From the NCBI GenBank assembly GCA_963667175.2, contig CAXXXF010000002.1:1-64000 (forward strand): 64,000 nucleotides of DNA, given 5' to 3'. Position 1 is the first letter of the stretch; the number at the start of each line of letters is the position of its first letter. Source of the stretch: Candidatus Latescibacterota bacterium. Lineage in GTDB: Bacteria > Latescibacterota > UBA2968 > GCA-2709665. Below are positions 15,507-36,700 of this stretch, piece after piece. Both the position numbers and the translations under genes were made by a program. The notes under the pieces were generated by a model, which was not told where the DNA came from, did not search any database, and worked only from the letters and a program-made list of their open reading frames with translations.

Positions 15507-15675
15507 CGCAGACCTCTCCCCCCGGCCTGCCTGCGCCTGCCTGTCCCGTTGGAGCGGCAGACAGGCCGAGTTCTGCTCGGCAGGCAGGCCCCCTCTCCCA
15601 GAGGGAAAGGGGGAGAAAACCAGGACAACGCGAGGGGATCACAGTTCCCCCAGGAATGGGGAAAGGGGGTAGGTC
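15507..15675 (+). repeat. CCCTCTCCC/GGGAGAGGG-type composite repeat with nested CCTGCC..GGCAGG palindromes; homologous to 36556-36700
   Basis: Near-identical to the 36.6-kb copy over its first part, except for a 30-bp extra insert at 15536-15565. Confidence 0.85.
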
Positions 15676-19868: not shown

Positions 19869-20453
19869 ATGTGCCGATTGGTATAAATCATGCGTCTTTC
19901 ATCCGAAATCCACAAGAAAAACTTACTGATGAAATTCATTTGAAAAATGTGGAGCAAATCAACCATGATCCTTCAGTTACAAGAACGCCATTAGTAGAAG
20001 CGGCCTTACCATTTACGATCGTATTCCCGGGGATAGACCCGATCTGTTTATAGCAAGCCAGGAACTCGAGGAAATACTGAAAGAGGGTCTCATTGGAATT
20101 TCGCTTAGCGGATTTGCGTTGCGGACCAGATCAAAAGTCGTCAAGGCTGAAGTATGCAAGGCGATTGGTTCTCCGGTACCAGGATCCTTTAAAAAGACGC
20201 AGCCAAGGTTTCCCGGCCAGAACTTTGACGTATACATCCAAAAGTCCAATAACCTGCAGGTCTGGAACGAGGATCTCGACGCATCTCGCAGGTACGTAAT
20301 TGTGCGGGTTGATGAGGACAATCGGATATGCAACGTCAGGGTAGTTTCCGGTGCAGAACTTGCTAAACTGGATAGAACGGGCGCACTGACCCAAAAATAT
20401 CAAGCCGCTCTAGCCTGCTTGGTCGGCGGAATTTGTAGTGTTTGAGTCAAGTT

Positions 20454-22077
20454 TCATGCGGCGAGTTTGGCTTGATGGCAATGGTTGTGGATGAGCGATT
20501 CGAGTTTGTAAAAGGCGTTGCGGATGGGGTTTGGGTTGGTTCTGTCCAGGGTAAGGGTGAGCCCGGATCGCAGGACGCGTGCATACGTTCGACTGTAAAA
20601 CAGGGCAATACGAAGGCCGTCGTCGGTGACGTGGTAACGATGGGTGCCGGGGATACGCTGTATGAGGCGTCGCAGCCGCAGTCTGCGCAGTTGATAGGTC
20701 ATCATGCCGGGTGTGAGTTGGCTGGGGTCAAGGCCCAGGAGTGGAGCGAGGCGCTCCCTGAGATCACGGTTGCTAAACCCTGTGATGTTCAGCCGGAAGA
20801 GGACCAGTGCCTGCAAGAGCAGCTGCGTGCGATGATCGCCGAAGCGTAGGGCGGACGTGCGTTGACCGTCTACGACGTCAGGCTGTTGAAGCTTGTGGAA
20901 AGCGTCTTCGCCGACGGTGCAGTCATGGCTGATGCTTTGGACGTTCAGGAGACGTCGGTTGGCTTGAAAGCCGACCTGTCGCAGGGCGCTCAGGTTGTGC
21001 AGCCTCTTGCCGATGGCGAAGTCGTAGGTGTTGTTGATGGTGGTTTCGGTGCGCAGGGCGCGTCCTTCTTTATGATACTGATGGATCTTGGAGCTTTTGT
21101 AGTCCACGTACAGGGAAGGGCTCACGCCGTGTGTGATGACGCGGGTACGGAAACGCCCGGGCGTGCGTCGCGTCACCCGACGATCAAAGATCAACTGGAT
21201 CTGGTCAGGACGCCCCAGGTCGAGATTCTCCCGCAGAACCTGCTCGAAGAACACCCGCCCGGTGTGGGGACGGTCGAAGACCTGGGTAAGCGCAAATTCG
21301 GCCTGCAGCATGGACACGTCATACGTATAACCGGCTTGGCGGTCTTCTTCCGTATACGGATGCGGTAAGCGCGCAAACCACTTATTGACAAGCCTTCGGA
21401 TGTGAAAAGCGGAAAGGTTGTTGCAAATGTGCTGGAGAAGGATCGGATCCTGGCAGGACAGAAAGCCGTTGTCCAGACTCTCATAAGCAACGCCCCGTTG
21501 GTCGAGTTGACACTTGGCATACTCATGACCATTGATGCACAACTTGGCCGTGTAAGGGAAGTAGGTGCAGAACTTGAGAAAGAACAGCCCGAAATCCTTG
21601 TCCACGCAGTAAAAGTAGAAGTGGTTGACCATTGCGGTGGAACGAACGATCCACGGATAGGGCGCTCCCGTATCTTCCCGCCGCCGCCGTTGCGTTCGAA
21701 ACACGACGGCCTTTTCCTGAGCGCTGCCCACGAAGACCACGCCCTCGTCGCCCTTGAAGCGCTTGAGGTGTTCCCGTGCGATATCTTCTTTCCGCTGACC
21801 CTTCTTGAAGCGCACCAGAGGAATCTCCTCGTCCTCAACGAACCGGCGTATAGCCTTCACAAAGGCCCTGGACCGATCCGCCACGACCACCGTCGATGGC
21901 ACCGGGTAACCCAGATGATACTTGACAAACGAGACCATCCCCAACGCACGCTGCCTGCCTGCTGCAGGCAGGTAAACCAGGCACATACACATTCAAATAC
22001 ATCCGATCAATGCTCTCCACTTCCAACGTCACGCGGTCCTTTAATAGTTGCGATACCGACAATTCCGTCTTATTCAT
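20454..22077 (-). pseudogene. Putative transposase/Rep-like protein with C-terminal wHTH (534 aa once repaired); frameshifted by a 19-bp insert
   Basis: ORFs 21835-22077 and 20454-21992 join as YVPGL-QRALGMV when 21954-21972 is removed (1605 nt); motifs SSKIHQYHKEGRALRTETTIN and TYQLRRLR...LIQRIPGTHRYHVT. Confidence 0.85.
21954..21972. repeat. 19-bp palindromic insert CCTGCCTGCTGCAGGCAGG
   Basis: Same 9-bp termini as the palindromes at 15526-15588 and 36575-36607. Confidence 0.9.
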
Positions 22078-22081
22078 GATC

Positions 22082-22205
22082 AGGCTCCAGTTAGCACGGT
22101 CTCAAAGACCAACTACCGCCATTGCGGTCCAATAATCGGGGTCCCTAAAAGGACAACCGACGCTCAACTGGGGCCTATTTTATTTACACAAACGCTCTTA
22201 CGCAA
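22082..22205 (-). promoter_or_regulatory. Element promoter and structured leader (candidate cis-RNA/ncRNA)
   Basis: TTGCGT-17bp-TAAAAT (22205-22177), then a closing stem 22162-22176/22082-22095 that encloses three hairpins. Confidence 0.65.
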
Positions 22206-22799
22206 CAACACGTCTCGGCGGTCTGAGGCGAAGCCTCGCTAGATGTTGGAACTGCCGCATGTGAGTTGGTATCGACGGACGATGCAATACCAGCACAACT
22301 TATCGGGGAAAAACCGTCGGAGCGTTTAATCGATCCAACAGAAAATCCTTCGTTGAGTTCGCTAATCCCTATTCGAATCTTGTTCGAAATGCTAAAGTGT
22401 ACGATCGGGATGAAAGTCGACTATTTGGGAATGGATCAAGAGAGAAATCGTGGCTCAGCACTTCACAAGGCGGTCACAAGTCTATTGGGCTACTCTGTCT
22501 TCGCAGACAAGGGCACATTCCCGGACATTCCAAACCAACTCTTGGAAACCAAACTTCAGACCTCCCGGACCATAGACTTGGGTCTTGTGACGCCCGACAG
22601 CAAACAGGCCCTTGACTATCCGGCAATGGACGGAAGTATTGTCCTACGACACTGTGATGTCAGATACGCGATGTTTTACGGCGATTTGACTGGCAATTCA
22701 GTAAGAATCACCAATTTTTACCTGACGACTGGGAGGGATTTCTTTTCGAGATTTAGGCGCTTTGAGGGAAAAGTGTTAAACAAAAAACTACAAATACCC

Positions 22800-24488
22800 C
22801 TACCTTCGGATTTCTTCATCTGAAAATCCAAATGCCTTCCAGACCAAATCGTCAACAGTACGCATCAACTCGGTCTTTTCGTCGGACGTACAATTGAAAA
22901 CCTGTCTTGCCATCTTGGCGAGTTGAATCGCTGAATCCGAATCTGGATTTGGAAGAGGGAATTGCTCGACATATTGGGTGTTGAATCGTCTTCTTCCGGC
23001 ATATAGTTTATTGTTGAAGTTGCGGTCGTAGAAATATTCTACGAATGAAGAGTTGGCTACAGCAAGAGCGAGCCAGGTAAGCTCATTTTCTTCAGAGCAC
23101 GAAATCCAATAGCAATCACCGTTTACGACTGTACCGTCCAAGTCCAGCCAGAATGTAGGATGTTCAGCAATATCACGAAAGACAATTTTGGATTTTTTCC
23201 AAGCTCCAGGATCCTGGGGTACCCAAATCTCGTACCACTTTCTTCCCGCGTCAATTACATACTTCCTACCCTCAAGTTGGCTTCTATGTTTCTCAAGATA
23301 CGCTTTCGATCTTGGATAATCCGCTAGATCGAAGGGACAGCGCTTACCTTCAATTGTAGTGTGAGGATAAAGAATCTTGCTTTTGGGTGTCTTCGACCTG
23401 TAAGGACTTCCAATGTGATGGGTTGTCAATTCCTCTAGCAACTCCGGTCGCTCATCCTCAGGCATGTTATCCCAATCTGATCTTATGAATATGCGATCAG
23501 CGGTCGTCTTTACACCCACCCTTACTTTGCCAAGATCCTTGAAAGTGGCAGCGGTGTACCTACTGACTTTATCTAACCAATCTCTACTTTCCTTTGTAGC
23601 TATTCGCCAAACGTCCTCTGGCTTTCTGCCCGAATCCAACTCTCCCTTTTGGATCTTGAAGTACCCGTTAAATCTCGTCTTGACATGCCCGCGATGCCCT
23701 AGAGCATCGATCGGACTATCACAAGACTGAGCTTTTTTGACGGGGGAAGTAGCATAGATCGAAGTGAATTTGGCAGCAATCGGCGCCATTCTATGGGCCT
23801 TCGGTCTCAACATTAATACTGCGGGAAGTACAGCTGCCTCGAAAAGTTTCGTGTCGCCAAGATCCCAATTATGTGCAATTTCGTACAACTCCTTTATCCG
23901 TGCCCTTACACTTGCCCCGGATCTTGTCGTCATAAATCGATTTGAAACGATTATTCCAAGTATGCCGCTCGGGTGTATATACTGGGCAATCGCAACAATA
24001 AACGCATAGTAGAGGTCGACCCTTCCCTTTAGTCCGAATTGGCGAGCTATGGCTTTGGACCTCTTGGAACCTAATACTTGAGTTCTCACGTACGGTGGAT
24101 TTGAGATCACAAGATCGAATTGTTGTCCTTGTTTGCGCTGAAATAGGTTAGTCTGCGACAAACGGTATTCTGACTGAGCGAGAAAGTCCTGATTATTGAA
24201 CTCAACGGAAACTTCGGGATACCTATCCCTTATTCTAGCCTCCGCAGAAAGCAATTCGTGATAATTGGTTTCGTACCCGCTCACCGAAATACTAATATCC
24301 ATCTGCAGAAGATTATTCAAAACAGCAAGCAACAGTTCACCATCACCGAGAGCGGGATCGAAAACACCTACATGGCGTCTGTTAGCTGGTGGCTTCCACA
24401 ATTTCAACATCTCTTCCGCAACAAATTCTGCCAGAACAGATGGAGTGTAATGCGATCCTGTAGATTTCTGTTCTGATTTAGTTATCAT
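22800..24488 (-). CDS. Type II N6-adenine DNA methyltransferase, M.BseCI/M.BanIII-like (probable ATCGAT specificity)
   Basis: QKSTGSHYTP, FDPALGDGELL, NPPYVRTQVLG, LKGRVDLY and DLGDTKLFEAAVLPA closely resemble M.BseCI as I recall it; convergent with the REase gene. Confidence 0.85.
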   Translation of the reverse strand: MITKSEQKSTGSHYTPSVLAEFVAEEMLKLWKPPANRRHVGVFDPALGDGELLLAVLNNLLQMDISISVSGYETNYHELLSAEARIRDRYPEVSVEFNNQDFLAQSEYRLSQTNLFQRKQGQQFDLVISNPPYVRTQVLGSKRSKAIARQFGLKGRVDLYYAFIVAIAQYIHPSGILGIIVSNRFMTTRSGASVRARIKELYEIAHNWDLGDTKLFEAAVLPAVLMLRPKAHRMAPIAAKFTSIYATSPVKKAQSCDSPIDALGHRGHVKTRFNGYFKIQKGELDSGRKPEDVWRIATKESRDWLDKVSRYTAATFKDLGKVRVGVKTTADRIFIRSDWDNMPEDERPELLEELTTHHIGSPYRSKTPKSKILYPHTTIEGKRCPFDLADYPRSKAYLEKHRSQLEGRKYVIDAGRKWYEIWVPQDPGAWKKSKIVFRDIAEHPTFWLDLDGTVVNGDCYWISCSEENELTWLALAVANSSFVEYFYDRNFNNKLYAGRRRFNTQYVEQFPLPNPDSDSAIQLAKMARQVFNCTSDEKTELMRTVDDLVWKAFGFSDEEIRR

Positions 24489-24532
24489 CGTTGTTTCCTT
24501 AACCCACGACCGCGTTTCTATATTCAATCTCC

Positions 24533-24575
24533 ATATTACTAAACATTTGAGCATCTGTCAATGTCGGAATTGACA
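24533..24575 (-). promoter_or_regulatory. MTase promoter with an inverted repeat over the -35
   Basis: TTGACA-17bp-TAATAT; TGTCAAT-N6-ATTGACA at 24556-24575. Confidence 0.55.
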
Positions 24576-31590: not shown

Positions 31591-33548
31591 ATGCCTGACC
31601 GGAACCGGAAACTCCGCCGTGCCGCGCTGCTGCTTTTTCCGGATGCCGTGCTGAACGAGGAGACGATCGACCGGATCGTCCGGGAAGGGTTCACCGACGT
31701 GGGCGCAGGCGTCACGGTCACGCCGGCGGTAAAACAACAGGGCTTCTCACTGGAACAGTCGGAGCGGCTCGCCCGGATGTGCGAGGATCGGGACCTCGGA
31801 TTCATCGCCTTCACCGGATACATAAAGTATCAGGAACGTCTGTTGGCGAAAGAACCCCACCGGCTGATGTATATGGTCGGCGATGACGGCGTCCTGGACC
31901 TTGACGGGCTGCCGGTCCGGTATCTGTGTCCGTTTCGGCCCGAGAACAAGAGCCACTACCTCACCCTGCTGATGGAAATCTGCAACTGGCCCGCGGTGCG
32001 GGAAATCCACCTCAACGACGAGGCGTGTCTCGGGTTCGGAGACGGCACAATCGGCTGTTACTGCGCGTTCTGCGAGGCTGAATTCAGCAGACGGACCGGC
32101 GTCAATCCACCCCGGGTTGCGGATTGGGATGACCCGTTGTGGTATACATGGCTGGAGAGCCGCTTCGAAAACTGGGACGCGGTGCACTCGGAGTTTCGAA
32201 GCGCCATCAAAGACGTCCGTCCCGAAGTGGTTGTGGGCATCCAGCACAGTCCCGCCGTCCCCGAGCGGAACTACAATGCCTGGCAGACGGCCATCCGCCT
32301 CGCCCGCGACGCGCGTTCACAGGACGTGATCGCCACGGATCCCTATCATTTCAATCACGACGATCTCATTCTGCACCGGCCGCACCGCAGGATCCTCTCG
32401 GAGACCACGAGAAGTCTGATGGGCGCCTGCATGGATCGGCAGGTGGATATCTATCCGCAGGGCTTCATGCCGCCGGCGCAGGCGGCGCCGATGGGCAGGC
32501 AGGACGGCCTGCTGGCCGGCGTGGCGCCGTTTGCGCTCGGCGCGGACCTGGTCATGCCGTTTACCTACGAGCAGATGAAGATCATTCCGGGATTCTTCGA
32601 AGCGTTCGACGAGACCCGGCGCCTCATGCCGGTGTTCGCGTCCCACCGGCCGTACAGCTTCGCCACAATGATCATGCCGCAGCAGTCGGAGATCACCGGC
32701 CACTACGACTCGAACTGGGGACACACCGGATTGATCGGGATGGTCGATATGGTCTACCGGACCGGATTGCCGTGGCGATGGTTCTGGGACGGGCGCCTGG
32801 ACGACGCGGGCGACCAGCTCACGGGACCGGTGATCCTGCCCGAGGCGCATTGCCTCACGCAGTCCCAGATCGATTGCGTCAACGCGGTTGCAGAACGCGG
32901 AGAGGGTCTCCTATCGAGTCGGGCGTCTTTGAAGTCGACCTCTTGCGCAACCATCCGCTCACAGAGGGCCTGGAAGATCCCGTGATCCTGACGACCCGGG
33001 TGGAAGGCGGGTATCCGGACGGGCAGGTGCTTGGGACCGTGGATGGCCGTCCGGCCCTGGTCCTGGTGGAGGAAGGGTCCCGTCGGGAGGCCTGGCTGGC
33101 GGGCATGCCTGCCGTGAAATATACCGGTAACGTTCCCGGAATGTCTTTTCTCGAGGAGACGTCCAACGTGGCGTTGCTGAGGAGACTGATCCTCTGGGCG
33201 GCCGGCCGAAGGCCCCTGGCGCGGTTGACTCCCTTTCCGCCGGCGGACGATTACCGAACGCTGCGGCCGACCGACCGGAGGGCCGTGCCCACCATCGAGT
33301 TGCTTCCAATGTTCGATGGCAGCGATTCGCTGCTGGCCATCGTGTTTCCATATACGCCGGTAAGGAGCCAGACAGCGCTGGAGATCGTCCTTCCCGAAGG
33401 AAGAAGCGCGCAAGACGTCAACGAGATCTGGTCCGGCGAGAACTGGAACGACCGCGTGATATCGGCGAAAGACGGAACGATGCGCATACCGCTCGATATT
33501 CCCGGCGACTGCGACCTCTTGGCAATACACATACAGTTCGCAGGTTGA
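31591..33548 (+). pseudogene. GH42-like TIM-barrel protein, frameshifted or deleted at ~32910; related to 17772-19868
   Basis: LCP, LNDE and CYCAFC motifs; the C-terminus continues in the frame of ORF 32139-33548 (PTIELLP). Confidence 0.7.
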
Positions 33549-36555: not shown

Positions 36556-36700
36556 CGCAGACCTCTCCCCCCGGCCTGCCTGCGCCGAGTTCTGCTCGGC
36601 AGGCAGGCCCCCTCTCCCGAGGGGAGAGGGGGAGCAGAACCGGGGTTCATCAAGCGATGACAGTTTCCCCCTTCCCCCGGGGAAGGGGGATAGGGGGTAA
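36556..36700 (+). repeat. Composite palindromic repeat, homologous to 15507-15675
   Basis: CGCAGACCTCTCCCCCCGG-[CCTGCCTGCGCCGAGTTCTGCTCGGCAGGCAGG]-CCCCCTCTCCC..GGGAGAGGGG. Confidence 0.85.

Follow-up and report, generated by a model that had tools for sequence, protein, structure and literature searches.

A 19-bp palindrome within the gene of an insertion sequence-like element is a probable member of a family of ultra-small mobile DNA

What is a 19-bp palindrome doing in the middle of a gene that would otherwise encode a protein of 534 residues, and how did it get there? The gene belongs to an insertion sequence (IS)-like element in the stretch of DNA analysed here, positions 1 to 64,000 of contig CAXXXF010000002.1 (contig C2 of genome G000), which is called the window and to which all window coordinates refer (Table 1). 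G-numbers denote the species genomes compared, C-numbers contigs, X-numbers public metagenome runs and L-numbers loci. The genome comprises 5.52 Mb in 18 contigs with about 60% G+C. The 19 bp are a recent, exact, duplication-free insertion of a non-coding unit into the IS-like gene. The unit is probably a member of a family of ultra-small, protein-less mobile DNA that is mobilised in trans and in which nothing but the two inverted ends, 9 bp each, is conserved.

The palindrome, CCTGCCTGCTGCAGGCAGG, is made up of the 9-bp arms CCTGCCTGC and GCAGGCAGG around one central base, which is T on the plus strand. It occurs once in the window and was matched in none of 100 dinucleotide-preserving shuffles. 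The interrupted gene spans 1624 nt, and removal of the 19 bp gives back the frame of 1605 nt (534 codons) that the original prediction had described. Read straight through the unit, the frame breaks just past ...NVYVPGL; the unit shifts it by +1 and is the sole lesion of the gene. A paralogous copy of the element on contig C4 encodes an uninterrupted 534-aa open reading frame (ORF) and aligns with the window copy over 1837 columns at 93.3% identity, the only long gap being these 19 columns. A scan of the species genomes found 73 loci related to the IS protein in many phyla (L001-L073). The 36 with a match starting at query residue 1-6 and with upstream DNA were examined, the other 37 being left out, and all 36 read uninterrupted through ...YVPxL|Q..., none of them containing the 19 bp.

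The C4 copy has TTG where the C2 copy has TTA, which leaves an uncertainty of one base on the junction. In contigs from X1 and X2, which belong to one study, and from X3, which belongs to another, exactly 19 letters are missing after position 21953 and 21973 is unchanged, with one or two other letters differing over about 300-510 nt of this stretch. Because these contigs match the window at 21973, the empty allele is settled as ...CGCTG|TAAACC..., i.e., TTA|CAG, and the unit sits between these two codons exactly as predicted. At the focal G|T site bases were neither duplicated nor lost, so the predicted absence of a target duplication also stands. A contig of 221 nt from X17 carries the filled form with one other letter different; this run is possibly the source sample of the genome, and its contig is therefore not independent proof. 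The runs that best match the stretch are labelled sponge and coral metagenomes. Slippage is an unlikely origin, as had been argued, since the flanks do not template the unit, and these flanks have nothing in common with those of other unit copies. An Rfam scan of the window returned tRNA only. Bypass of the 19 nt during translation, or their removal in the manner of an intron, was also considered and was dropped, as no take-off and landing codons match and nothing else speaks for it.

The focal palindrome is far from alone in the genome. When a unit is defined as running from CCTGCCTGC to GCAGGCAGG across no more than 120 intervening nt, the genome holds 197 units of 19-88 bp, with length classes of 19 bp (48 units), 20 bp (16), 33 bp (75) and 36 bp (14) and nested forms of 47-88 bp. 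The units are GC-rich palindromes able to fold, with perfect stems of 9-10 bp, and they start with CCTG and finish with CAGG; the middle is 1-2 nt in the 19- and 20-mers, a variable hairpin in the 30- to 36-mers and another unit in the nested forms. The focal palindrome has the same termini as the 63-bp and 33-bp units of the window, as the original prediction had noted. The inner parts of six common 33- and 36-bp units were never found outside the arms, which rules out that they are separate nested units. The long forms are therefore whole units with a variable inner hairpin, and the 19- and 20-mers are bare arms. The genome is also rich in other families of perfect palindromes of 17-36 bp, among them ACTCCCCCCTTGAGGGGGAGT (29 copies), GGGCAACCACAAGGGTTGCCC (24) and CCGCGATCAGATGATCGCGG (18), and these are joined into modular mosaic repeats.

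Evidence that the units are inserted DNA comes from empty sites. Each unit was cut out exactly and the joined flanks were searched in the genome, and an ungapped empty paralogous site across the junction was found for 137 of the 197 units. Grouping the units by flank similarity gave 64 host contexts, 26 of which have an empty paralogue; in every one of these 26 the unit alone explains the difference, with nothing duplicated and nothing lost. Sites of the A|T, A|G and G|A kind leave the boundary no room to slide and fix the unit as exactly CCTG...CAGG, and the bases flanking it are target DNA because the empty sites show them. With exact shared ends and many pairs of filled and empty sites, the view of the palindrome as a very small non-autonomous mobile DNA holds.

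The family is patchily distributed among 40 relatives, with 129 units in G009, 121 in G015, 110 in G016, 71 in G011 and 31 in G006, 6-17 in each of seven further relatives, and 0-2 in the other 28. A reversed-pattern control gave 0 in every genome, relatives and distant genomes included. Across the phylum (168 genomes searched), genomes with at least 10 units were confined to the genome's own family, where they make up 10 of 22. Whatever its central base, the exact 19-mer occurs in more than 122 loci of the species collection. Among the matches listed are Acidobacteriota, Bacteroidota (including cultured strains), Desulfobacteraceae, Ignavibacteriota, Gammaproteobacteria, Planctomycetota, candidate phyla and others, and in these listed matches from other genomes the 19-mer often lies at the centre of another palindrome. 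Long-read metagenome-assembled genomes (MAGs) and cultured isolates are among the sources of the 19-mers in other phyla. Unit counts in five of the genomes with a match were 522 (G041), 101 (G045), 45 (G043), 9 (G044) and 5 (G042). In the first 400 kb of G041, a gammaproteobacterial MAG with a 3.66-Mb chromosome, 19-mers account for 59 of 61 units, so the 19-mer itself multiplies; nearly all of the listed G043 units are also 19-mers. Many of these G041 units lie inside IS630-, IS5- and IS3/481-type genes, and one IS630-type gene (DDE_3) holds two. The same genome has a pile of IS3/481- and IS5-type elements with 8-10 19-mers in about 2 kb, present at C1:360563-362422, 376224-378133 and 391793-392837 (L341, L342). 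Five insertion sites are common to the three copies of the pile, and the unit-riddled segment has therefore itself been duplicated.

What does the unit insert into? The base at -1 to the unit, reading inward, is G in 91 of 128 half-sites, with C or G one position further out. The bases on either side of the unit are each other's complement in 41 of the 64 contexts, mostly as G|C, where the dinucleotide content leads one to expect a fraction of 0.27. In the 400-kb sample of G041, 32 of 46 distinct sites have self-complementary flanks, mostly A|T (0.29 expected). The original prediction had counted three G|C junctions and one G|T junction in the window and had read them as purine|pyrimidine steps. 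The count is borne out, but the rule is better given as a self-complementary step N|N', because G|C prevails here and A|T in the distant G041; the focal G|T site is an exception to it. Targeting of hairpin loops was also considered and was rejected, as 18 of 64 insertion points fall in predicted loops compared with 20% of 1500 control G|C sites.

The genes that are hit were surveyed as ORFs spanning the junction in contexts with an empty paralogue, twelve of which were domain-scanned. The ORFs hit encode rve, Transposase_mut (four hits, all in copies of a single element) and DDE_3 domains or, in two elements of which one is hit twice, DDE_Tnp_1_4; others are multi-copy and match no family. Besides the focal element, at least five further IS types in the genome carry units in their transposase genes. 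The palindrome does inactivate the gene of another mobile element, as first proposed, the frame being broken here and intact on C4, but it is not a sole case: it is one of at least ten in-gene hits in the genome, all of them in IS-type or multi-copy dispensable genes. An empty paralogue is visible in multi-copy DNA only, and the list therefore says nothing on preference; loss of frameshifted essential genes would yield the same picture. Two copies of a DDE_3 (IS630-type) element, at C2:117842 and C16:486971, carry different units (a 19-mer and a 20-mer) after a shared left flank ...CACAAGCCYG|, and the right flank differs in one copy, which may reflect a hot spot hit twice or a rearrangement beside the unit.

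By what mechanism might such a unit move? The unit is non-coding, keeps exact ends whatever its middle and has the same ends in unrelated phyla, and for these reasons we infer mobilisation in trans by a horizontally spread enzyme. Such an enzyme would probably recognise the paired arms, as a hairpin or a cruciform, and cut flush at their outer edge, and it would then join the unit to the ends of a flush break, with a preference for self-complementary steps N|N'. Flush cutting and joining would explain the fixed ends, the free middle, the absence of a target duplication and the two-fold symmetry of both element and target. Surviving copies would pile up in intergenic repeats and dispensable IS genes because a 19-bp frameshift would be lost from genes that are needed. 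We place much less confidence in any particular chemistry of mobilisation than in the general reading of the units as trans-mobilised, REP/SDR-like ultra-small mobile DNA (repetitive extragenic palindromes and small dispersed repeats, respectively). A bolder proposal, which we offer tentatively, is that CCTGCCTGC-N-GCAGGCAGG may be the minimal form of a previously undescribed bacterial mobile DNA, 19 bp long, two-fold symmetric and flush-inserted at self-complementary steps by an enzyme that is neither Y1 nor RAYT (REP-associated tyrosine transposase) and that has spread horizontally across many phyla. These would include the Latescibacterota-like sponge and coral symbionts, Gammaproteobacteria, Desulfobacterota, Ignavibacteriota, Acidobacteriota and Bacteroidota. 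If this proposal is true, the unit would be among the smallest transposable sequences known. By frameshifting what it enters it would steadily disable IS elements (up to 8-10 hits per 2 kb of IS DNA in G041), and it may help to tame the IS load.

Several points weigh against the general reading of the units. The insertion or excision event itself was never caught, and the filled and empty alleles come from different samples; contigs cannot reveal rare variants, and X17 is possibly the genome's own source sample. Within the genome, 39 of the 48 19-mers share a single site (GGGAGCG|CAACGCC) in one modular host repeat, which is also found empty 27 times, and the independent 19-mer contexts therefore number about 7, not 48. 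Since (CCTG)n/(CAGG)n is of low complexity, some single hits in other phyla may be due to chance, and by our own arithmetic about 10-20 chance matches are expected in 596 Gb. Neither a single-strand nor a double-strand route is favoured: there is no loop enrichment, and no clear orientation bias with GC skew, as the asymmetric units number 23 F and 12 R in skew-positive regions and 27 F and 30 R in skew-negative regions of a fragmented assembly in which many units are inherited within host repeats. The flush cutting of paired arms is a proposed step. Lastly, the mobilising enzyme was not found among the candidates tested (RAYT/Y1 and DUF559), so that movement in trans by an enzyme that recognises the ends is something we infer.

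The alternative that survives best, while still unlikely, is that the units are ordinary "double-foot" REPs moved on single-stranded DNA by one of the RAYTs (TnpA-REP, Y1 HUH transposases) of the genome, which would leave no target duplication. RAYT-like genes are indeed present, with three Y1_Tnp model matches, on C3 and C7 (two), and relatives on C6 and C8 that a search with the C7 protein turned up. Orthologues close to the C3 gene (77-91%) occur in G009, G011 and G016, all of them among the four relatives with the most units. With CCTG at one end and its complement at the other, the perfectly palindromic unit has the formal layout of the double-foot REPs of subclass 2.4, and HUH transposition leaves no duplication, both as set out in passages of PMC6006769. 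The units, however, have no GT[AG]G or CGTC tag, and the RAYT-like genes on C3, C7 (two), C6 and C8 each have another palindrome around or inside them, CGAGGGCAGGGATGCCCTCG, GTAGGGGCAGGTTTCAAACCTGCCCCTAC or GTAGGGGCGACCGGCCGGTCGCCCCTAC. The C3 orthologue and the units also agree only in part among the relatives, which are not independent of each other: G015 has 121 units without a close orthologue, whereas G007 and G013 have one with 17 and 11 units, respectively. The C7-type RAYT is unrelated to the unit counts, and G041, with 522 units, has no PF01797 match. Moreover, REPs are described in part of PMC6006769 as species-specific, whereas the ends of the CCTG units are common to many phyla. 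A RAYT/Y1 HUH transposase as the mobiliser is thus not supported.

The RAYT-like genes have repeats of their own. At C3:192275-193951 (L074), a 201-aa Y1 gene lies among CGAGGGCAGGGATGCCCTCG repeats; the array, with eight or more CGAGGGCA-GGGA/TCCC-TGCCCTCG palindromes that alternate in orientation, has the look of a classical REPtron, and elsewhere CCTG units are inserted into the loop of this array's palindrome (GAGGGCAGGA|TGCCCTCG). The Y1 genes at C7:59528-60124, C7:62896-63492, C6:490202-490675 and C8:17635-18159 contain an in-frame double-foot REP of the GTAG...CTAC form (GTAGGGGC...GCCCCTAC) inside the ORF, with more copies around. Such a layout has been published for TnpA-REP subclass 2.4, according to passages of PMC6006769.

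A second candidate mobiliser, a small DUF559 nuclease, was rejected as the distribution of its homologues does not track the units. The gene (Vsr-like, 126 aa, C15:381390-381767; L199, C15:380700-382000) lies in a repeat-dense stretch (C15:356000-406000) and is bracketed by composite repeats that carry CCTG units. Its close homologues occur in six low-unit relatives, namely G018, G020, G022, G027 and G034 (0 units) and G023 (1 unit), while G016, with 110 units, has distant homologues only and neither G041 nor G045 has any. The DUF559 fragments next to a 37-bp unit variant in G016 all belong to a single composite module that is repeated. The 107 intervals bracketed by units contain mostly ordinary-looking ORFs, so that this gene list is not discriminating. 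The original prediction had named no mobiliser and had suggested relating unit abundance across genomes to candidate enzymes; neither RAYT nor DUF559 gave a consistent match.

Could the palindrome have spread with no dedicated enzyme, copied from another genomic copy by template switching during replication or by short-patch gene conversion? Most junctions allow a one-base microhomology, with G before and C after the unit in a donor context ...G[unit]C..., and the absence of a target duplication is also in keeping with such copying. Yet the focal G|T site and other A|T, A|G and G|A sites lack microhomology on at least one side and still have identical boundaries, and the focal flanks are unlike those of other copies. 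Nor would rare replication errors be expected to give the same boundaries in phyla that are unrelated or to raise copy numbers into the hundreds, and we regard this explanation as very improbable. Still less credit is due to the idea that the 19-mer is an excision footprint consisting of the two 9-bp tips of a longer element, although longer units have exactly the same tips and the 19-mer equals these tips plus one base. None of 306 arm pairs lying 120-6000 bp apart in the genome bounds a longer repeated element; 11 had a spanning match, and these are read as chimeric because their units lie in repeated host sequences. The predominance of 19-mers in the G041 sample and among the listed G043 units also speaks against a footprint. 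As for an assembly or sequencing artefact, palindromes can be mis-assembled and the 19 bp are absent from the site in three runs, but with the filled X17 contig, identical units at 47 other places in the assembly, and others in long-read MAGs and cultured isolates of other phyla, this account deserves next to no weight.

The interrupted gene itself belongs to a mobile element, which is multi-copy, has defined ends and a target duplication, and splits a gene that is intact elsewhere. Its two genomic copies have different flanks, the second lying at C4:389863-391680, and the element is multi-copy in the three MAGs richest in loci (10, 6 and 3 loci). Searched as a single sequence and as a 19-member alignment against PDB and Pfam, the 534-aa protein had no Pfam, NCBIfam or PDB match; an Atlas search with it returned unnamed clusters only, and the sole hint of a fold is a weak C-terminal winged helix. 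The protein may represent an unclassified transposase family. In MAGs of many phyla, among them those of Isosphaeraceae, Vicinamibacterales, Terriglobia and Actinomycetota, the element is present in several copies.

The IS-like element in turn splits a 342-codon ORF, the C-terminal 192 residues of which match open frames of 343-355 aa in G007, G028, G029 and G033. In G007 the intact ORF likewise converges on and overlaps a methylase gene. A family search with the split ORF gave no match, and its label as a restriction gene therefore comes from position only: it is the putative restriction endonuclease of a restriction-modification pair. The three-level nest that the original prediction described is nonetheless real, with the putative restriction gene entered by the IS with its CTAG duplication and the IS entered by the palindrome. 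The IS had entered the ORF paired with the type II methylase gene earlier, making the CTAG duplication, and the palindrome came later. The pair occupies 19969-24554, and its combination of an intact methylase and a split endonuclease is what one would expect where a cell can do without restriction but not without methylation.

Table 1. Features of the window discussed in the text (window coordinates; a point marks features without a strand).
Feature	Position	Strand	Remarks
19-bp palindromic unit CCTGCCTGCTGCAGGCAGG	21954..21972	.	Inserted between G21953 and T21973
Start of the 534-codon gene of the IS-like element	21973..22077	-	35 codons from ATG, upstream of the insertion
Remainder of the same gene	20454..21953	-	499 codons and stop, pushed out of frame by the 19 bp
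IS-like element body	20414..22238	-	1825 bp in length, or 1806 bp once the palindrome is subtracted; two genomic copies
CTAG, left copy of the 4-bp target duplication of the IS	20410..20413	.	Intact orthologue has a single CTTG here
CTAG, right copy of the target duplication of the IS	22239..22242	.	From comparison with the intact orthologue
N-terminal part of the IS-split 342-codon ORF	19969..20413	+	89% identity with the intact G007 orthologue (residues 4-147)
C-terminal part of the split ORF	22239..22823	+	Convergent overlap with the end of the methylase gene
Intact type II N6-adenine DNA methyltransferase gene	22800..24554	-	Eco57I, N6_Mtase and TaqI_C domains
63-bp nested unit	15526..15588	.	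33-mer of 36575 carrying a related 30-bp unit (15536-15565) at a G|C step
33-bp unit	36575..36607	.	Same ends, variable inner hairpin; lies in another repeat, at a G|C step
Solitary arm, CCTGCCTGC on the minus strand	32495..32503	-	From an arm search of the window

The spread of REP-like palindromes is a long-standing open question, and to our knowledge in vitro work has dealt only with GTAG-tagged REPs and their RAYTs. The family described here provides clean material for this question, with exact boundaries, dozens of filled and empty pairs, a self-multiplying minimum of 19 bp, a symmetric target rule and a patchy distribution; with patchiness both among close relatives and across phyla, the enzyme can be sought directly by comparison of genomes. 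If that enzyme is not a Y1 transposase, it would represent a new route of DNA mobility, and a compact sequence-specific DNA insertion activity would be of possible practical use. The present case also shows tiny palindromes as inactivators of insertion sequences.

Among known systems, the REPs, together with bacterial interspersed mosaic elements (BIMEs) and REPINs (REP doublets forming hairpins), are closest at first sight. In the portions of PMC3116915, PMC6006769, PMC8266576 and PMC3733652 drawn on here, they appear as short GC-rich hairpin palindromes of high copy number, thought to be non-autonomous and moved in trans by RAYTs without target duplication. A conserved GT[AG]G or CGTC tetranucleotide marks the foot of the REP hairpin (passages of PMC6006769 and PMC3733652), and intragenic and nested REPs as well as "untagged" families of stem-loop repeats have already been published (passages of PMC3733652). 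Like REPs so described, the CCTG units are short, hairpin-forming and high-copy, nest in other palindromes and sit inside genes. Unlike them, they are untagged and have no RAYT gene flanked by their own copies, their richest genome lacks Y1, and their ends are common to unrelated phyla; the focal insertion is out of frame and inactivating, whereas the intragenic REPs in the published passages keep the frame. On tag, RAYT association and species specificity, the REP tests that were run, the family thus falls outside REPs. The "peel and paste" elements of the IS200/IS605 family share hairpin ends, the lack of a target duplication, and exact excision and insertion, but as characterised in passages of PMC6006769 they have two unlike ends, a fixed one-sided target of 4-5 nt and a Y1 transposase, in contrast to the one symmetric hairpin and symmetric N|N' target of the CCTG units and the absence of a Y1 gene from G041.

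Miniature inverted-repeat transposable elements (MITEs), in the definition taken from a passage of PMC3733652, are likewise non-coding, have terminal inverted repeats and are moved in trans. They measure 70-300 bp, however, and have a parent IS with the same ends and target duplications, whereas the CCTG units measure 19-36 bp and neither of these was found, so that the family differs from MITEs in both tests, target duplication and parent IS. The GC clusters of yeast mitochondria (portions of PMC4478555) and the Rickettsia palindromic elements (via passages of PMC3733652) are also small and GC-rich, spread, merge and sit in genes, and have no known mobiliser. The former differ in being organellar and flanked by AG or ACT direct repeats, and the latter in being longer and in frame.

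Five 19- and 20-mer unit strings had no match in the text of CC-licensed PMC and bioRxiv papers, and a search for cross-phylum REPs led to the REP/RAYT literature that this text cites. The small dispersed repeats of Nostoc, described by Elhai and colleagues in 2008, are reported to be repeats of 21-27 nt, some of them hairpin-forming, that are mobile as judged from filled and empty copies of IS elements and repeats, are often nested and have no known mobiliser. By this description, the SDRs of Nostoc and its relatives resemble the CCTG units in being very short, in having filled and empty copies within IS elements and repeats, and in often being nested. The host of the CCTG units, in contrast, is not a cyanobacterium (it has no Photo_RC match, and the nearest named RpoB, at 77%, is that of a Candidatus Latescibacterota MAG). 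The CCTG units also reach down to 19 bp and are spread across phyla.

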